Below, piece after piece: positions 2,671-57,568 of a stretch of 64,000 nt of DNA. The number at the start of each line of letters is the position of its first letter. Position 1 is the first letter of the stretch. The DNA comes from Nitrospirota bacterium (GTDB taxonomy: Bacteria > Nitrospirota > UBA9217). A program made the position numbers and the translations under genes. The notes under the pieces were generated by a model, which saw only the letters and a list, made by a program, of their open reading frames with translations, was not told the DNA's origin and ran no database searches. Location of the stretch: NCBI GenBank assembly GCA_963796285.1, contig CAWCKW010000012.1, positions 544,001-608,000 of the forward strand, in the 5' to 3' direction.

Positions 2671-3674
2671 TAATTCAACTCCCAGTAGTTCTTACCGTTT
2701 AAAACATAATACTCCAGGGATTTTTTAAGGCCTTCGCGGAGGGAGACACGCGGCGTCCATCCAAGGGCTGTCTTGATCTTCGTGAAATCGCTGTAGTAAT
2801 CGCCGATATCTATTGCCTTGCGATCGGCTGGAAAGGGGACTAGTTGATGCGATCCTTTTCCGAATAGCTCCACCATCATGGCGGCCAGGTCTTTGAGGTT
2901 GACATATTCGGAACTCCCCAGGTTGTATACTTCGCCGTCGGCCTTTGGATTGAGGGCGGCGGCGAGAAACGCGTCAACCACATCATCCACGTAGTTGAAG
3001 TCGCGCATCTGGAGCCCGTCGCCGAACACGAGGATCGGTTTCCCCTCGATCAGGTTCCGGATCCATATGCCGAGAAAGGTCTGGCGTGCGTCCTTAACCC
3101 GCATTCCCGGGCCATAGGTATTGGTCAGGCGCAGGGCGCAGGCCCGGATGGAATACACATTATTGTACAGAAGATGATACCATTCTCCCGCAAGTTTGTT
3201 GATGCCGTTAACATCGACGGGTTTAATAGGGTGCTTTTCATCAACCGGCAGATACTCCGGCTTGCCGTAAAGCTGGCGGGTGCTGGCAAATACGATCTTT
3301 ATTTTCGGGTTGTGTTTGCGGCACGCTTCAAGGATTGACAACTGCGCAGAGGCGTTGATATCAAGGTCTGTCTGGGGGTCGGTCATGGAATCAAGATGGC
3401 TGGTCTGGCCGGCCAGGTTGAATAGATAATCCTGACCCTGAATGAGATGAGCCATAGCGTGCGGGTCGCGCACATCGGTTATATTGACCATCACCCGGTC
3501 CTTAAAATCGTGAATATTGAAAAGATTGCCACCGTACTGCGGGATCAGACTGTCCACCAGGGTGACGTTGGCATCCAATTTTACCGTAAGCCGCCGTGCC
3601 AGCGATGACCCGATGAATCCCAAGCCGCCCGTGATCAGTATGTTCTTGCCGGCAAATGCTTGAAAATTATTCAT
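2670..3674 (-). CDS. NAD-dependent nucleotide-sugar epimerase/dehydratase
   Basis: Extended SDR motifs TGGLGFIGS, RLTNTYGP and RDFNYVDD. Confidence 0.9.
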   Translation of the reverse strand: MNNFQAFAGKNILITGGLGFIGSSLARRLTVKLDANVTLVDSLIPQYGGNLFNIHDFKDRVMVNITDVRDPHAMAHLIQGQDYLFNLAGQTSHLDSMTDPQTDLDINASAQLSILEACRKHNPKIKIVFASTRQLYGKPEYLPVDEKHPIKPVDVNGINKLAGEWYHLLYNNVYSIRACALRLTNTYGPGMRVKDARQTFLGIWIRNLIEGKPILVFGDGLQMRDFNYVDDVVDAFLAAALNPKADGEVYNLGSSEYVNLKDLAAMMVELFGKGSHQLVPFPADRKAIDIGDYYSDFTKIKTALGWTPRVSLREGLKKSLEYYVLNGKNYWELN

Positions 3675-43637: not shown

Positions 43638-44577
43638 CGCCAGTTCTATAGCGAAGTGCAACACTTGGGGTAGCTATGCTACTCTAAGTTTCTATGCCAA
43701 AATCATATAAGCATCTGAGCCAAGAAGAACGAGAGCTCATTGCCGCCCAGCTCTCAGAAGGTTCCAGTGTCGGCGACATTGCAAAAGCCGTAGGCCGGAA
43801 CAAAAGCATGGTCTCACGCGAACTCAAGAGGAACTCTCCGCCGGAGTCCCTTCCGGGCACATGCTCGGGCTTGTGAACGAAAAACGAATGCCAATAAGCA
43901 CGAGCGATTAAAAAACGACCTCGTCAGGCACTATGTGAAGGACGGCCTGGCTCAGGGATGGTCCCCTGAACAAATCTCTGGACGGATCCGAGTAGACCAT
44001 CCAGGGCAAACCATCAATCACGAGGCTATCTATCAGTACATCTACCATCCCCAGAATCCAGATCGGGTGGAGATGGCCGAAGTCCGTTGAGAGTCGCCGT
44101 TACTATGGTCACTGGGAGGGCGACAGTCTCGTCTTCCGAAAGAGCAAGTCGGCGTTAAATAGCCTTGTCGAGCGCAAGAGCCGTTTTGTTCTAATCACCA
44201 AGCTACAGCGAACGAGCGCTGCCGAGACAAACAGGGCTGTCATTGACCGACACAAGAAGCTCCCAGCCAAGGGACGCCAAACACTCACGGTTGGACAACG
44301 GGACCGAGAATGCCAAGCACGAAACGCTCTCGGCCAAGCTTGGGATCAAATGCTACTGTGCCCATCCCTATGCATCCTGGGAGCGGGGCACTAACGAGAA
44401 CATCAACGGGCTCATCCGGTGGTACTTGCCAAAGGGTACCGACTTTAGTAAGATTGCTTCCGAGCAGATAGCTTGGATTGAATATCTTCTTAACAGCCGA
44501 CCGAGGAAGTGCCTCGGTTACAGAACACCATTGGAGGTCGCGGCCTCAAGCCGTAGCACTTCGAGATAGAATCCGCG
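43638..44577 (+). mobile_element. Decayed IS30-family insertion sequence
   Basis: Transposase fragments YKHLSQEER..SRELKRN, WSPEQI, GHWEGD, DNGTE and HPYASWERGTNENINGLIR..PKGTDF..LNSRPRKCLGY. Imperfect terminal IRs (19/25 match) are flanked by GATG on both sides. Confidence 0.88.
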
Positions 44578-45045: not shown

Positions 45046-45621
45046 ATGAAAACGCCCATCATTCTCGCGTCAAACTCGCCTCGCCGCAAAGAGCTGCTGC
45101 GTCAGCTCGGTCTGGATTTCAGCATCGATCCGGCCGATGTGGACGAGCGCGTTCTGCCTAATGAAGTGCCGGAAGGATATGCTGTGCGGGTAGCGCTCGA
45201 CAAGGCGCGTCTCGCGGCCGCGCGGGCAGTCTCCGGCATTGTTATTGCCGCAGATACTATTGTTGTCGTTGATGACGAAATACTCGGTAAGCCGGCAGAT
45301 GCGAGTGATGCCGAACGAATGCTCAAAATGCTCTCCGGAAAAGCACATCGCGTGATCACCGGCCTTGCGGTCATGGATGTTGCTACGGGAAAGACCGTTA
45401 CCCGAACCTCGATCACCCGTGTCTGGTTCCGTCGCCTTGCGCAGCAGGAGATAGTTTCCTATATTGCCACCGGCGAACCACTCGACAAGGCCGGCGCTTA
45501 CGGCATCCAGGAACGAGGTGCTTTGCTGGTTGACAAGATAGATGGGTGCTATTTCAACGTCGTCGGACTACCGCTCTCACTACTCGGGAAACTGCTCCTT
45601 GATTTTGGCATTAATATGTAG
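45046..45621 (+). CDS. maf: Maf-family nucleoside triphosphate pyrophosphatase
   Basis: Motifs ILASNSPRRKELL, IAADT, LGKP, DKAGAYGIQ and NVVGLPL. Confidence 0.95.
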   Translation: MKTPIILASNSPRRKELLRQLGLDFSIDPADVDERVLPNEVPEGYAVRVALDKARLAAARAVSGIVIAADTIVVVDDEILGKPADASDAERMLKMLSGKAHRVITGLAVMDVATGKTVTRTSITRVWFRRLAQQEIVSYIATGEPLDKAGAYGIQERGALLVDKIDGCYFNVVGLPLSLLGKLLLDFGINM

Positions 45622-45692
45622 GCGTCGCGATATAACAGCACCGACCAGTTGCATTAAAATGCACTTCATCCTTTTTTATTACACGTCAGGCC

Positions 45693-45721
45693 TTGACAGC
45701 CGATCAATATCATACTAAAAT
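45693..45721 (+). promoter_or_regulatory. sigma70 promoter of the LuxR-family gene
   Basis: TTGACA-17 nt-TAAAAT. Confidence 0.75.
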
Positions 45722-45758
45722 ACTAACATATCCAACCGATACGGAAACGGGGGTTGTT

Positions 45759-46403
45759 ATGTCTATAATTCGTATAATGATCGTTGCAAACGACCCAAAT
45801 CAGATGCAAGCGCTTAACGCTGCACTTGACCAGCAGGATACAATGGGTATTATTTCAATTGTATCCTCGAGTGAAACCGCTATTAAGCAGCTGACAGCCT
45901 CTCCCGATATCATGCTCTTAAATCCCGAGGTGCTGAAAAAACATACTCTCTCGCGATTTATACACGCGATCCATACAAAGTCGTCCCGGACAAGGATCAT
46001 TCATCTTCTGCAGCGAACTCCTCCCGATGAAGATCTTATATATGACATCAAGGCGGGTGTCAGGGGATACATCAAGACGACCGATTCGCCTGCGATCATG
46101 ATAAAAGCAATTCAAGCTGTATTCAATGGAGAAATTTGGGCTGAACGCAGGATCCTGGAAAAGGCGATTTCAAATCCCGTGTTGTTGCCCGAGATACTTA
46201 ACGTGAACGTCCCGGGGCTTGCACCGCTTACGAGCCGGGAGAAGGAAATGCTCACCCTGGTCATGAAGGGTGAATCGAATAAGGAGATCGCGGCCAGGAG
46301 CAGTATCAGCGAGCGAACAGTAAAGACCCATCTGTATCGTGTATATCGGAAACTGAATGTTAAGAGCAGGACCAAAGCAATTGCATTATTCTCGCATTCG
46401 TAA
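45759..46403 (+). CDS. NarL/LuxR-family regulator with an atypical receiver domain
   Basis: C-terminal HTH LTSREKEML..GESNKEIA..ISERTVKTHL. The receiver lacks the phospho-Asp (DIMLLNP). Confidence 0.9.
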   Translation: MSIIRIMIVANDPNQMQALNAALDQQDTMGIISIVSSSETAIKQLTASPDIMLLNPEVLKKHTLSRFIHAIHTKSSRTRIIHLLQRTPPDEDLIYDIKAGVRGYIKTTDSPAIMIKAIQAVFNGEIWAERRILEKAISNPVLLPEILNVNVPGLAPLTSREKEMLTLVMKGESNKEIAARSSISERTVKTHLYRVYRKLNVKSRTKAIALFSHS

Positions 46404-46423
46404 CATTATTGGTTTCATCATTA

Positions 46424-46469
46424 AATACGACTTTAGGTCTATTGACATACAATCTTAAACTGCTATCCT
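46424..46469 (+). promoter_or_regulatory. sigma70 promoter with an abutting imperfect palindrome (candidate LuxR box)
   Basis: AATACGAC-TTTA-GGTCTATT overlaps TTGACA (46442-46447). An extended -10 TGcTATCCT follows at 46461-46469. Confidence 0.6.
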
Positions 46470-46475
46470 TTAACC

Positions 46476-46704
46476 AAATACTGCGCTGTGCCATTGCTCT
46501 CAGGTGAACAGAAGCTGGTACATTGGCGAGAAACTTCTATCCCCCCATGAATAAAGTTTAAGCCGACCAGAATCTATCACCAGGACGCAATAGTAAACAA
46601 CCAGTTAAAATAATTAGGTTTTGCAGCGCAGTAATGAAGGCGTCTTGATGACAAGTTGAGAGGAGAGATCCTTTCACAAAAAACATCGGGGCGCCTTGTT
46701 TTTT
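46476..46704 (+). ncRNA. Candidate novel structured non-coding RNA (about 230 nt)
   Basis: Nested helices found by eye, with G-U pairs only on the + strand, a GAGA tetraloop and a terminal U-run. It has its own promoter and no plausible ORF. Confidence 0.6.
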
Positions 46705-46814
46705 CCCCCTTTCAACAGAGCTGCACCAGCACTCCGATTCAATCTTCAACCAATCTAGTTGCGATTCCCACTCAAGCCTTGACGAGGCTGCAGAATGACT
46801 GTATCATGCGACCC

Positions 46815-48059
46815 ATGTCTGCCGTGCTTTTCACTGCCTATCTTTTCATCCTGGGGACCGGCTATTGGCTCAAGTACCTGAACCTTGCGTATTTAAAAGT
46901 TCATGGTAAAACCGTGCCTCCTGAATTTAAGGGTGTGGTCGGTCCGGCGCAACTGGAAAAAATATCCGATTATACATTGGAGAACAGCCGTGTCGGTTAT
47001 TTTGAATCAATCCTCGGTAACATCCTCACCATCCTCTTCCTTTTTGCCGGACTGCTCGGCGTCTACGATCGTTGGATACTTTCGCTAACCGGCTCGCTGC
47101 TCTGGGGAGGTTTGCTTTTTTCCCTCATCATGCTGTATGCTGAAACGCTGATCGATATTCCCTTCAGCCTCTACAGAAACTTCAAGATCGAAAATCGCTA
47201 TGGATTCAATACCATGACCATGCGTCTCTGGTTTATTGATCTGATAAAGTCAATCACGATCTCAACGGTCATTGGTTCTGTAGTCGTTCTCTCGGCGCTC
47301 GCGATCATCCAGGCCAGCCCCTCCTGGTGGTGGCTCTGGGTATGGATGTTTCTCTTGGTCTTCGGTATTTTCGTCATGTATATTTCGCCTTATGTCATTG
47401 AACCGCTCTTTTTTAAATTTGAACCGGTGAAAGCGGAGGGATTGGAAGAGAAGGTGCGCGTACTGATGGAACGCGCCGGTCTTAAGGTCGGCCGCGTGTT
47501 CCAGGTGGATGCGTCCCGCAGAAGCCGCCATTCGAATGCATACTTCACCGGCATCGGCAGGGTAAAGCGGATCGTATTGTTTGATACCCTGTTAGATCAA
47601 ATGACACACGAGGAGATCCTCGCGGTCCTTGCGCACGAGGTAGGCCATTGGAAGATGCGGCATGTGCTGAAGCGGATCGTCCTGACGGAGGCAATGGCGT
47701 TTTGCGGGTTGTTCCTGGCATTTCATCTTCTCTCGTGGGACGGGCTGCCGGGCATGATCGGACTCGCCAATGCATCGTTCTTCGCAAGGGTCGTTATCCT
47801 GGGATTTCTAAGCTCATTGGCCATGTTCCCGCTTACCCCGCTCTTTTCCTCTCTCTCGCGGAGAGACGAGCGCGAGGCGGACCAGTATGCTTCGGATCTT
47901 ACCGGTCGTCCTGATGCCATGGCGTCCGCCCTGGTGAAGCTTTCGCGGGAGAATCTTGCCAATCTGCACCCTCATCCGCTCTATGCGAAGTTCCACTACT
48001 CTCATCCGCCGGTTGTGGAGAGGATACGGAAGTTGAAGGCAGGAGCTACTAGCCAGTAG
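46815..48059 (+). CDS. M48 (Ste24-like) zinc metallopeptidase
   Basis: Motifs NAYFTG, RIVLFDTL, HEVGH, EREAD and YSHPP. Preceded by TTGACG-17-TATCAT, 7 nt before the ATG. Confidence 0.92.
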   Translation: MSAVLFTAYLFILGTGYWLKYLNLAYLKVHGKTVPPEFKGVVGPAQLEKISDYTLENSRVGYFESILGNILTILFLFAGLLGVYDRWILSLTGSLLWGGLLFSLIMLYAETLIDIPFSLYRNFKIENRYGFNTMTMRLWFIDLIKSITISTVIGSVVVLSALAIIQASPSWWWLWVWMFLLVFGIFVMYISPYVIEPLFFKFEPVKAEGLEEKVRVLMERAGLKVGRVFQVDASRRSRHSNAYFTGIGRVKRIVLFDTLLDQMTHEEILAVLAHEVGHWKMRHVLKRIVLTEAMAFCGLFLAFHLLSWDGLPGMIGLANASFFARVVILGFLSSLAMFPLTPLFSSLSRRDEREADQYASDLTGRPDAMASALVKLSRENLANLHPHPLYAKFHYSHPPVVERIRKLKAGATSQ

Positions 48060-48569: not shown

Positions 48570-49827
48570 ATGTCGATCCAGGCAATTAAAGGTGTGAAGG
48601 ATGTGCTGCCGTCGGACATGCCGGTATGGCAATACCTCGAGGCGACGGCGCGCAGGCTGTTTGAGGACTTTGGGTTTGCCGAGATACGGGTCCCGGTTTT
48701 CGAATATACGGAACTGTTTGCCCGGAGCATCGGTACGTCAACGGACATTGTTGAGAAGGAAATGTATACCTTTGAGGACCGCGACGGGAGAAAGATCACG
48801 CTCAGGCCGGAGGGGACCGCGGGCGTGGTGCGCGCGTTCGTCGAGCACAAACTGTATGCCGATTCCCAGCTGACGAAACTGTATTATCTGGGCCCCATGT
48901 TCCGGCATGAGCGGCCGCAGAAAGGGCCGTTATCGCCAGTTCTACCAGATCGGCGTTGAAGCGATCGGACTCGACCATCCTCATGTCGATATCGAGGTCC
49001 TGGCGATGCTGCACGCTCTTTTCGCCAGACTCGGCATTACGGGCCTGAGCCTTCAGATCAATTCCCTCGGCGACAACGAGTGCCGGGGAGCATACCGGGA
49101 CGCGCTCAAACAGTATTTATCGACAAAACTTCCGACCTTGTGCGCGGACTGCCGGCGGAGGTACGAGACCAACCCGCTCCGCGTCCTGGACTGCAAGGTG
49201 GATGCGGACAAGTTCATGGACTCGCCGGTCATGCTCGATTATCTCTGCGATCCCTGCAAGTCGCATTTCGAGACCGTAGAACAGGGGCTGCGCAAGCTCG
49301 GGATCCCTTTTGAGGTCAACAAGCGCCTGGTGCGCGGACTGGACTATTATACCCGCACGACATTCGAGCTGGTCATGGGGCATATGGGCGCGCAGAATAC
49401 CGTGGCCGCGGGCGGCAGGTATGACGGTCTGGTCAAGGAGATCGGCGGTCCGGCAACTCCTGGGATCGGTTTTGCGCTCGGCGTCGAGCGGGCGATATCG
49501 CTCATGGATACCAGCAACGTGGTGTTTCCCCGGCCCGCGCTCTTCATTGCCGCGCTTGGTCCGGATGCCGTGGCGCTGGTGCTTCCGATCGTCCATCATC
49601 TCAAATCGTCAGGGATCCCGGTTGAGACGGATTATACGGGAGCAAGCCTCAAGAGCCAGATGAAGAAGGCGGACAAATCAGGCGCCGGCCACACGCTGAT
49701 CATCGGGGAACAGGAAATGAAGAACGGGATAGCGATCCTCCGCAATATGCAGAACAAGGAACAGGCCGAGATCGCTCTCGTGAACATAGAAGAGGAACTG
49801 AAAAACAGAATGGCACGCCGAGCATGA
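48570..49827 (+). CDS. hisS: Histidine--tRNA ligase (frameshift near 48925)
   Basis: Motifs [37 protein letters not shown] and GFALGVER. Confidence 0.96.
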
Positions 49828-55805: not shown

Positions 55806-57568
55806 ATGGCGGTTGGGGATGTAAAAAAAAGGATCGGTGAGATGCTTGTTGCCGGAGGGCTGATCAAGGAAGAGCAGCTTATGCGGGCGCTTGAAGAACA
55901 GAAAAAGGGGGGGGGAAGGTAGGCGAAATTCTCGTGGACCTGGGATTCATCAACGAGCATATGATGGCAACATTCCTCGCCCGGCAGCTTCATCTCCCGT
56001 ACATAGAAATCGATAAACAGCTGGTAGACACCGACAGTGTAAGGATGATTCCAGCTGAAATGGCGAGACGCATCACGGCAATTCCGTTGTACAGAGACAA
56101 GGAAGCGCTGGTCGTGGCCATGGCGGATCCGCTGAATATCTTCGGCCTTGACGACATGCAGAAGGCAGCAGGCAAAGAGATCCGGAAGGTCGTTGCCACA
56201 CGGAGCGACATCCAAAAAGCTATTTCCAGCTATTATGGCATGGGGCATACCATCGATGCGGCGACCATGGATTTTGCCGGCGAGACGGGCACCGCTTTAG
56301 CAGAAGCTGTGGAGATGACCGGCGTCACGTCAGAGGACGCGCCGGTGGTCAAGCTGGTGAGTATGCTGATTGCGCAGGCCATCATCGACCGTGCCAGCGA
56401 CATCCACATCGACCCGGAAGGGAAATCCATCAAGGTGCGTTACCGGATCGACGGTGTGCTGATCGAGGTAAGGACCCTGCCGCGGGAGTTGCATGCACCA
56501 ATCGTCTCCCGCATAAAGATCATGGCAAATATGGACATCTCGGAAAGGCGCGTACCGCAGGACGGACGTTTCCAGGCACGGATCACGCATACCGAAACCG
56601 GCCCGGTCGTGACCGCCGTGTTTCGCGAGCGGAGCGTCCTGCGTATTGTTGATGAAGGCTCGACGGTGGACATCCGTGTTTCGACCCTGCCGGTCATTCA
56701 GGGAGAAACGGTTGTAATGCGCATCCTCGACCGCTCACGTATTATCCTGACCCTCGAGGGACTGAATTTCTCCGCGGATATGCTCGATAGGTACCGCAGA
56801 CTCATCACAAAGCCTTATGGCATGATCCTGGTCACGGGACCGACGGGAAGCGGGAAAACCACGACGCTCTATGCAAGTCTCAACACCATCGACCGGAAGG
56901 CGAACAATCTGGTTACGATCGAGGACCCTGTCGAGTATCAGATCATGGGGGTGAACCAGGTCCAGGTCAATGCCAAGGCGGGTGTGACTTTCGCCAGCGG
57001 CCTGCGTTCCATTCTGCGGCAGGACCCTGATATCATCATGGTGGGTGAGATCCGCGACCGGGAGACGGCCGAGATCGCCATCCATGCGGCGCTTACCGGG
57101 CATCTGGTCTTCGCGACGCTCCATACAAATGACGCGGCCGGCGCCGCTACCCGGCTCATTGATATGGGCATTGAACCGTTCCTTATTGCTTCTTCAACGC
57201 TCGCGATTCTCGGGCAGCGTCTTGCGCGGAAGATCTGCGACCGTTGTAAGAAACCCTATCCCGCGACCCCTGATCTGCTCAAGAGCCTCGGCATTGCGAC
57301 CGGCAATGTGACCTTTTACCGGGGTGAAGGGTGTCCTGCGTGTAAGAAAACAGGGTACCAGGGCAGGGTCGGTCTCTATGAGTTGATGGATATGACTGAA
57401 GCGGTCAGGGAACTGATCATTTCCAAGGCATCAAGCTCTGCCATAAAGACCACGGCCTCGCAGTCAGGATTCAAGACCCTGCGCCAGGAAGGCCTGGTCA
57501 AAGCCGCAGCCGGATTGACCACGGTGGAAGAGGTGCTCAGGGTTACGCAAGAGGCGGAAGGGATCTAG
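55806..57568 (+). CDS. PilB/GspE-family ATPase with N-terminal MshEN domain (frameshift in a G9 run)
   Basis: RIGEMLVAGGLIKEEQLMRALEEQ, ASDIH, PQDGR, GPTGSGKTT, TIEDPVE, LRQDPD and a tetra-Cys motif. Confidence 0.92.

Follow-up and report, generated by a model that had tools for sequence, protein, structure and literature searches.

A previously uncatalogued family of structured RNAs behind an atypical NarL/LuxR-type regulator gene in Nitrospirota

A structured RNA in a Nitrospirota genome

Within a stretch of 64,000 nucleotides (nt) from a Nitrospirota bacterium (assembly GCA_963796285.1, contig CAWCKW010000012.1, positions 544,001 to 608,000; hereafter the window) positions 46476-46704 of the + strand very probably constitute a real structured RNA gene, which specifies a stand-alone non-coding RNA of about 229 nt. 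Its fold is conserved and covaries, its strand is defined, it is a single-copy element and it is restricted to one family of the Nitrospirota. About 40 homologues were found, and at 37 of 39 loci the RNA lies directly behind the gene of an atypical NarL/LuxR-type regulator. The family is previously uncatalogued, being absent from Rfam and, as far as our literature search shows, from print. We class it as a new family within a known kind, the bacterial small RNAs (sRNAs), notable for the unusual richness of its structure and for its close linkage to an atypical regulator.

Fold of the predicted RNA

The locus had been pointed out in a preliminary description made from the DNA letters, and all base pairings listed there were found in place when the sequence was read (Table 1). 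RNAfold reproduced the proposed rod-like nested fold, and the comparison with dinucleotide shuffles that had been suggested as a check gave z = -7.32 (positions 46476-46706, + strand; -84.1 kcal/mol compared with a shuffle mean of -51.8 and a standard deviation of 4.4; 0 of 200 shuffles as stable). In the window the opposite strand folded more weakly (-74.0 kcal/mol, z = -3.92). An alignment-free comparison with 60 shuffles per sequence placed the folds of all 32 full-length homologues below their own shuffles, with a median z of -4.5 and a range of -9.3 to -1.8.

The closing stem P1 formed in 32 of 32 unconstrained minimum free energy (MFE) folds of the homologues, as did the 3' hairpin with at least 10 pairs. 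The rod P2 is nearly continuous in the window; in most relatives it is interrupted, and the motif CA.CA.GAUGC is largely unpaired there. In most homologues the RNA is about 15 nt longer than in the window and its closest relative, which have the more continuous rod. The pairing CUGGU/ACCAG of the window is CUGGG/CCCAG in this closest relative (L006), a compensatory change that supports the window's own rod. A short A/U-rich linker precedes the terminator hairpin, whose stem, as read from the window, holds three G-U pairs. There was no conserved reading frame in the RNA: the longest open reading frames (ORFs) on either strand of the 32 homologues had 20-61 codons.

Table 1. Features of the locus and of its neighbourhood (positions in the window)
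Feature	Position	Strand	Basis or remark
Maf gene	45049-45618		local gene order upstream of the regulator
Promoter of the regulator gene, TTGACA-17-TAAAAT	45693-45721		highly conserved
Atypical NarL/LuxR-family response-regulator-like protein, 214 amino acids	45759-46403	+	Pfam GerE helix-turn-helix, profile alignment
Conserved upstream element AAATACGACTTTAGG (consensus AAATac.AcTtt.G)	46424-46438	+	about -52 to -38 from the predicted start; 32-sequence alignment
-35 hexamer TTGACA	46442-46447	+	promoter scan
Extended -10 TGcTATCCT	46461-46469	+	promoter scan
Predicted RNA, about 229 nt	46476-46704	+	predicted transcript; 5' end inferred from the -10, 3' end at the U run
P1 closing stem, 5' arm	46479-46491	+	RNAfold; covariation
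P1 core pairing, TACTGCGCTG with CAGCGCAGTA	46479-88 with 46624-33	+	sequence
P2 rod with internal loops	46493-46591	+	RNAfold for the window
Rod pairing, ATTGC/GGTGA with TCACC/GCAAT	46493-507 with 46577-91	+	sequence
Conserved apical stem closing the large apical loop; family GCGGC/GCCGC, window UUGGC/GCCGA	46523-46566	+	covariation, helix 6
Apical loop region, conserved C/U-rich motif (family ACUUCUUCCCCCCC)	46530-46556	+	C6 run of the window at 46541-46546
Apical loop CCCCCCATGA	46541-50	+	sequence
Conserved motif CACCAGGACGC (family CA.CA.GAUGC)	46578-46588	+	near-invariant columns C105, A106, C108 and G111 in alignment A3
P3 side hairpin on the 3' side	46599-46620	+	RNAfold, homologue comparison; variable among relatives in sequence and in length
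P1 closing stem, 3' arm	46621-46633	+	RNAfold; covariation
3' hairpin, conserved stem GGCGUCYCGAU/AUCGRGRCGCC	46637-46697	+	covariation, folds; variable inner insert, GAGA-capped here
3' hairpin pairing, AAGGCGTCTTGATG with CATCGGGGCGCCTT	46637-50 with 46684-97	+	sequence; encloses the GAGA-capped hairpin
U6 tract of the intrinsic terminator	46699-46704	+	sequence; T-rich tail in most homologues
Promoter-like site of the M48 gene, TTGACG-17-TATCAT	about 46779-46808	+	promoter scan
M48/Ste24-type peptidase gene	46816-48059	+	Pfam Peptidase_M48_N and Peptidase_M48; downstream neighbour in most relatives

Covariation of the stems

Covariation was assessed in a structure-blind alignment of 32 sequences made with plain MAFFT (A3), the statistics being taken from shuffles and slid controls that ignore kinship. 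In the 28 pairs of P1, the apical stem and the 3' stem 91.5% of the alignment cells were paired and 17 pairs changed on both sides (50 cells). None of 500 shuffles reached the observed values, and slid controls had 32-52% of cells paired. P1 showed changes on both sides in 9 of 11 pairs in A3 and in 11 of 14 pairs in the model alignment A7. For the 13 pairs of the 3' stem in A3 the corresponding values were 93.5% of cells paired and 6 pairs changed on both sides.

Model alignments extended the analysis to the central part of the fold. The structure of a subgroup of seven sequences (A4) gave model R1, 20 aligned matches (A6) gave model R2, and 41 matches, 39 of them distinct, were aligned as A7. 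Both models span only the domain before the terminator. In A6, 88.3% of cells were paired and 30 of 40 pairs changed on both sides (122 cells; slid controls 30-44%, shuffles 0 of 500). The values for A7 were 87.1% and 34 of 40 pairs (276 cells; slid controls 31-44%, shuffles 0 of 500). Helices 2-5 had 70-87% of their cells paired in A7, with every pair changing on both sides, and the apical helix 6 had 90%.

The alignment also fixes the strand. At two positions of the 3' stem C-G, U-G and U-A pairs alternate in A3, which makes sense only on the + strand. G-U pairs, cited in the preliminary description as pointing to a + strand RNA, alternate with G-C and A-U pairs in the terminator stem. Promoter and terminator share this direction.

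Several observations count against the interpretation or qualify it. The sense strand is not favoured by MFE alone in many homologues. The rod register of the window differs from the family consensus, with 30 of 40 consensus pairs standard in the window. Because A6 and A7 were fitted to the model, their counts for helices 2-5 and 7 lean to structure. The region 45700-47300 was recovered only as DNA contigs, from peat and wetland runs; no RNA run was among the sequencing runs that contain the locus, and a comparison with a single metatranscriptomic run (X21) returned 0 contigs, which is no evidence on expression either way. Finally, about half of the family, with 5 of the 9 genomes in the genus of the window among them (own genome counted), no longer carries the RNA, which is therefore dispensable.

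Homologues and distribution

In a BLAST search against 41 related genomes the region was found once in its own genome and in four others, each time directly behind an orthologue of the regulator gene. A scan of one-genome-per-species contigs with the alignment of five regulator orthologues yielded 44 loci, 40 from Nitrospirota and 4 from Acidobacteriota (about 30% identity). The preliminary description had proposed to collect homologues behind LuxR orthologues; reading the DNA behind the regulator stop codon revealed the RNA at 31 of the 40 Nitrospirota loci. All 31 share the promoter, the P1 words GACUGCGCUGUU/AACAGCGCAGUC, the apical series GCGGC...CUUCUUCCCCCCC...GCCGC, the CA.CA.GAUGC motif and the 3' stem GGCGUCYCGAU/AUCGRGRCGCC with a T-rich tail. 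The RNA is absent at the other nine loci (L007, L008, L010, L012, L023, L033, L034, L037 and L039). In L008 and L010 remnants of the promoter (…TTTATTGACAT…) are followed directly by the promoter of the M48 peptidase gene, which points to independent loss by deletion.

Model R2 scored 84.5 bits for positions 46475-46633 of the window. Its scores ranged from 29 to 164 bits on the sense strand and did not exceed 26 bits on the antisense strand. The divergent loci L035, L038, L040 and L041 were unmatched by R2 and were accepted by eye from promoter, P1 and terminator motifs. Counting the genome of the window itself, R2 matched 31 of the 64 genomes and 12 of the 19 genera examined in the family; within the genus of the window the RNA is present in 4 of 9 genomes, again including its own. 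It is single-copy in its own genome according to BLAST and in every R2-positive genome of the family but one metagenome-assembled genome (MAG), which has two. Over a 151-genome sample of the phylum R2 matched 13 genomes, all of this family, and none of 123 genomes in 21 other families.

The regulator gene stands immediately upstream on the same strand at 29 of 30 fetched loci of the family, the thirtieth being cut by the end of its contig. A loose pattern scan of metagenome contigs fetched 80 loci, of which 9 match R2 and 8 have the regulator upstream. At the ninth (L087) only the last regulator codons remain beside a phage-integrase fragment (3262-3621), while promoter and RNA are intact; it is the sole locus seen with the RNA but no regulator beside it. 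The sequence of the window is present as DNA in metagenomes from peat, wetland, soil and sediment.

Two loci are worth recording for themselves. In the two-copy MAG (G067; L015 and L044) the second regulator, at L044, is matched only from residue 51 and its RNA is divergent with a short 3' hairpin, which may reflect a real duplication or two strains in one bin. The record of L045 is titled 'uncultured archaeon' but carries the Maf-regulator-RNA-M48 block of Nitrospirota with 58% protein identity, so that the bin is probably mislabelled.

Promoter, upstream element and terminator

The preliminary description had ascribed to the RNA a promoter of its own. A sigma-70-type promoter TTGACA-16-TATCCT with an upstream TG, matching at 10 of 12 positions, was indeed found at 46442-46469, 39 nt behind the stop codon of the regulator gene and thus wholly outside the coding gene. 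In all 32 homologues the extended -10 (TG.TA...T) follows the -35 at a distance of 15-18 nt. This spacing is not a product of construction; the presence of ATTGAC in all 32 is, as it served as the anchor for extracting the homologues.

Upstream of the -35 the element AAATACGACTTTAGG is conserved, with AAAT[AG]C[AG]AC in 20 of 32 homologues and ACT[TA]T in 26 of 32. The 12-mer AAATRCRACTTT has three copies in the own genome, and because only the one at the RNA locus lies beside a promoter we regard it as a dedicated element. A regulon was not found: within the own genome the motif is unique to the RNA promoter. Such an element would fit a local regulator or an UP-like element. The more far-reaching proposal of a 20-bp palindrome abutting the -35 as a LuxR box did not hold, since only its left half (AAATRCRACTTT) is conserved in the 32 homologues. 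The Lux-box-like palindrome was dropped accordingly, its right half, between ACTTT and ATTGAC, being variable. It is possible, if rather doubtful, that transcription depends on the neighbouring regulator via the conserved AAATRCRACTTT element beside the -35. The adjacency itself can be explained without such control, because Maf, LuxR, RNA and M48 form a syntenic block and the RNA and the LuxR gene have a terminator in common.

As a separate lead, and not as evidence, we record a perfect 14-bp palindrome TGCATTAAAATGCA at 45650-45663, which precedes the -35 of the regulator's promoter by about 30 nt. Similar ones occur in relatives of the same genus, and it shares AAAATGCA with the upstream element of the RNA in other genera.

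The terminator described earlier was recovered as well: the hairpin, with an outer stem of 14 bp, is followed by six T, as is typical of an intrinsic terminator. The T-rich tail is clear in 26 of 32 homologues and weak or interrupted in six (L031, L035, L038, L040, L041 and L042). A simple terminator scan passed over this 3' hairpin, because its rule of a 3-8 nt loop excludes stems with an inner hairpin.

The regulator

The regulator has a GerE helix-turn-helix at residues 156-210 (Pfam, E = 6.5e-22), and a profile of five orthologues gave full-length alignments with VraR, DesR and NarL. By these comparisons it has the NarL/FixJ-type architecture with a C-terminal GerE domain and a predicted N-terminal receiver fold. 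Pfam Response_reg did not match at E<=0.001. In NarL the receiver Asp is the phospho-acceptor and the DD pair forms an acidic pocket. The position aligned to the Asp of NarL LILLD is Asn in the window and the acidic DD pair is replaced by A-N; in this column two of the four other aligned orthologues have N, too, and the other two have D. No kinase gene is adjacent. With receiver residues replaced and no kinase gene beside it, the 'orphan LuxR regulator' of the preliminary description may fairly be called an orphan, atypical response regulator.

Known RNA families

No Rfam 15 family matched any part of the window at gathering score, nor the segment 46300-46900 at E<=10, nor any of 20 homologue-bearing loci. 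This check had been proposed for the claim that the RNA is not 6S RNA, signal recognition particle RNA, transfer-messenger RNA, RNase P RNA or a known riboswitch; the claim stands, and the RsaE, 6C and sX13 models included in Rfam 15 gave no match either. A full-text literature search, judged from its listings and the openings of abstracts, surfaced no description of an sRNA from Nitrospirota.

6S RNA, too, is rod-like, about 200 nt long and closed by a stem. The hallmark of 6S RNA is a large central bubble flanked by long helices. No such bubble is present here: the internal loops of the rod are all small in both the MFE and the centroid structure. The 6S candidate (RF00013) was also rejected because the model did not match at the locus and the canonical 6S RNA of the genome lies elsewhere (C12:1524125-1524304, 103.5 bits). 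A further candidate, reading CA.CA.GAUGC as a CsrA site, was rejected as well: GGA is not conserved there and CsrA (PF02599) was not found in the 96%-complete genome, so that the RNA does not resemble a sequestering RNA of the Csr/Rsm type.

The C-rich loop and a possible mode of action

The conserved C/U-rich motif of the apical loop is CUUCUUCCCCCCC in most relatives and CUUCUAUCCCCCC in the window. Of 32 homologues 30 have a run of at least five C, and the unconstrained folds of all these leave it exposed except for 2 nt at most. A conserved, exposed run of at least four C in a hairpin loop is the mark of sRNAs of the C-rich-loop class, which is defined by function and not by homology. The C-rich loop noted in the preliminary description is thus a family trait that fits the likeness to RNAIII drawn there. 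By analogy, the C run suggests a mechanism in which a C-rich loop pairs with G-rich sites. The length of the run may vary for technical reasons, too: contigs of the DNA run X3 carry one extra C after 46540, and the C run at 46541-46546 may suffer from the same homopolymer effect as a G run described below.

We tentatively favor the view that the RNA acts in trans as an sRNA, possibly with the help of Hfq, and that its C-rich loop pairs with G-rich ribosome-binding sites. It would be transcribed from the sigma-70-type extended -10 promoter of its own that lies behind the regulator gene. The exposed loop would pair with G-rich Shine-Dalgarno regions of several mRNAs and block their translation, as in sX13, 6C, RNAIII and RsaE, and Hfq may hold the A/U linker, the terminator and the U tail. 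Hfq is encoded in the genome (109 bits), while CsrA and ProQ were not found in this 96%-complete assembly. An A/U-rich linker followed by a 3' hairpin and a U tail resembles an Hfq-binding module.

A number of results speak against this mode of action. The C run is missing in two of 32 homologues, L031 and L045, the RNA of L045 being without most of it (CUUCUUCGCCGG). Exact 10-mer complements of the loop numbered 158 genome-wide, compared with about 157 expected (23 seeds x 7.16 Mb / 4^10). RNAduplex against 3707 start regions, a rough set derived from a home-made rule on ORFs and Shine-Dalgarno sequences, gave no outlier; in duplex energy the regulator's own ribosome-binding site region ranked 1156 and the M48 start 3551, and neither neighbouring gene looks like a target by sequence. 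G-rich ribosome-binding sites do exist, but at unrelated genes and in part in repeat elements. Putative products of genes with G-run patterns near the start codon are, as judged from translations, NFACT-like, NifX-like (behind a repeat element), thioredoxin-reductase-like, a ferredoxin and a BTAD/SARP-type regulator. Lastly, the size of the RNA and its conserved internal loops and terminator stem exceed the needs of a simple seed carrier, which favors a protein partner.

One G-rich leader stood out for its composition. Outside the window, at C12 ~1807190-1807270 of the own genome, runs of 8-15 G and then GGGGGAAGAGGAGGAAUG precede a gene for 427 amino acids that looks BTAD/SARP-type from its translation; a C-rich RNA might target this leader, unless it arose as an artefact of assembly.

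Other readings of the RNA

The protein partner leads to a different reading, in which the structured RNA serves as a decoy, a scaffold or a component of a ribonucleoprotein and the C-rich loop is one of several protein contacts instead of a seed. We consider this rather unlikely, though far from negligible. The recognition sites would be the internal-loop motifs CA.CA.GAUGC, GAG and AAAACA together with the sequence-invariant 3' stem. The length of about 230 nt, the seven covarying helices and the failure of any mRNA target to stand out in the 10-mer and RNAduplex searches agree with such a role, as does the pattern of conservation: unpaired and internal-loop positions and the terminator stem are conserved (G166-U176 and U213-C222, in the numbering of the first sequence, are nearly invariant), while the sequences of the other helices drift freely. 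Yet the repeated motifs of sequestering RNAs are missing and CA.CA.GAUGC lacks a conserved GGA. Rfam gave no match to 6S or another protein-binding family, and with neither CsrA nor ProQ found in the nearly complete genome only Hfq and the neighbouring regulator are left as candidate partners.

A related and unlikely view joins the RNA and the atypical regulator in a two-part module, in which the RNA would be the sole direct output of the regulator and, in place of a plain seed carrier, a seven-helix protein- or ligand-binding machine. A single direct output is suggested because the upstream element stands at no other promoter in the genome. The regulator, which in the window is without the phospho-acceptor residue, probably senses something other than a kinase, as far as its sequence tells. 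If true, the module would correspond in Nitrospirota to GacA-Rsm or LuxO-Qrr, but with other components.

We regard as improbable that the RNA acts mainly in cis, either as a structured 3' untranslated region (UTR) or terminator of the regulator mRNA with a role in stability or termination, or as an attenuator for M48. The simple scan found no terminator-like site on the + strand in 46403-46476, i.e. between the stop codon of the regulator and the RNA, so that transcripts of the regulator gene must run into the RNA, which ends at the sole terminator following that gene. The constant strand and immediate adjacency (29 of 30 and 8 of 9 loci) and the M48 gene that follows at most loci are in line with a role in cis. 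On the other hand, all 32 homologues have a complete promoter with conserved spacing in the gap that separates the stop codon from P1. By sequence this is the layout of an sRNA embedded in a 3' UTR with an internal promoter, i.e. a promoter behind the gene and a shared terminator. Regulator genes occur without the RNA at 9 of 40 loci, and L087 has kept promoter and RNA though its regulator is reduced to the last codons. The preliminary description had held that the RNA is not the leader of the next gene, and we concur: the downstream gene is a different one in L004/L075, L067, L078 and L079, and the M48 promoter is kept where the RNA has been deleted, e.g. in L007 and L012. Leader, attenuator and riboswitch of the downstream gene were rejected as candidates on the same grounds, the downstream gene being inconstant and M48 having its own promoter-like site.

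The M48 gene is itself apparently leaderless or nearly so. The -10 TATCAT (46803-46808) ends 7 nt before the ATG at 46816, and the same is seen in relatives.

A ligand-sensing, riboswitch-like stand-alone transcript, with the P1-closed junction and internal loops as pocket and the terminator as expression platform, is very unlikely. Its appeal lies in the P1-closed multi-helix domain directly followed by a terminator, in conserved nucleotides that cluster in junctions and internal loops, and in GC-rich words common to the arms of P1 and the terminator, which could allow alternative pairing. However, no Rfam riboswitch matched at E<=10, no downstream gene is consistent and no conserved antiterminator pairing was demonstrated; moreover, no conserved single-stranded element is larger than the homopolymeric C run of the apical loop, and such a run is unusual for a ligand pocket. 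That the locus is no RNA at all but a DNA-level element (protein-binding inverted repeats, or a remnant like a repetitive extragenic palindrome or mobile element) or a small protein gene is extremely unlikely: DNA inverted repeats likewise yield low folding energies on both strands, but the element is single-copy, compensatory changes preserve its pairing as the sequence diverges, only one strand tolerates G-U pairs, there is no conserved ORF, and a distance between the terminator arms of 4 to about 40 nt is unfit for a dimeric DNA site.

Other observations in the window

The histidyl-tRNA synthetase gene (48570-49827) is split into the overlapping ORFs 48570-48959 and 48907-49827. In the motif region ...CAGAAAGGGCCGTTATCGCC... 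one extra base shifts the frame from the expected QKGRYRQF, probably by an assembly indel, otherwise in a pseudogene. A run of nine G (about 55906-55914) interrupts a PilB/GspE-type secretion ATPase (T2SSE and MshEN domains; 55806-57568). With a tenth G it would again read ...EEQKKGGGKVGEILVDLGF..., which suggests a homopolymer miscall of the assembly or a slippery tract. The ORFs 43694-43876, 43935-44090 and 44243-44569 (+ strand) look, from their translations, like one IS30-type transposase broken by frameshifts.

Implications

RNA regulators in Nitrospirota are almost unknown. The candidate may be used for RNA family databases and for the annotation of MAGs from peat, wetland and sediment. 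Although the organisms are uncultivated, defined pairs (the regulator with the RNA promoter, the RNA with Hfq) are testable in a heterologous host. If the C-rich-loop mechanism is true, its targeting logic extends to another deep-branching phylum.

Comparison with known systems

The nearest parallel to the preferred reading is sX13 of Xanthomonas. It is reported to be a small, Hfq-independent RNA of three short hairpins, each with a loop of 4C or 5C, and the C runs in its apical loops repress mRNAs with G-rich motifs near the start codon (PMC3771888). The present RNA shares with it the display of a C run in the apical loop of a stand-alone RNA. It differs in its size of about 230 nt, in carrying one run of 5-12 C (mostly seven) within the large loop that tops a long rod and in its phylum, and Rfam showed no homology between the two by sequence or model. 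The 6C sRNA of Actinobacteria, a lineage-wide family that has two C-rich loops in a compact fold and needs no chaperone, is reported to bind G-rich ribosome-binding sites of several mRNAs (PMC6486639). The present RNA is unlike 6C in neighbourhood and size and has no Rfam match.

Pairing of UCCC or C-rich loops with G-rich Shine-Dalgarno or G-repeat regions is also the principle of RNAIII and RsaE/RoxS of Firmicutes and of RepG (HPnc5490) of Helicobacter. These RNAs carry several C-rich loops or have the loop in a short hairpin, unlike the rod described here, and Rfam indicates no homology. RNAIII and HPnc5490 are mentioned alongside sX13 (PMC3771888).

With modules of a regulator and an sRNA the locus has in common that the sRNA gene adjoins that of a transcription factor and that the sRNA promoter alone carries a conserved upstream sequence. 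Well-known modules lead from GacA to RsmY/Z and from LuxO to Qrr. Rsm RNAs have many GGA loops and need CsrA/RsmA, and Qrr promoters depend on sigma-54. Here CsrA was not found, and the promoter looks sigma-70 dependent. AbmR with Mcr11 is reported as a module of a regulator and an adjacent sRNA (PMC7064933).

In its genetic layout the RNA resembles DapZ and MicL, with a promoter at or just behind the end of a gene and a terminator in common with that gene. DapZ and MicL are sRNAs embedded in a 3' UTR and transcribed from an internal promoter. At the present locus, in contrast, no part of the promoter overlaps the coding sequence upstream, and the RNA far exceeds theirs in length and in structure.

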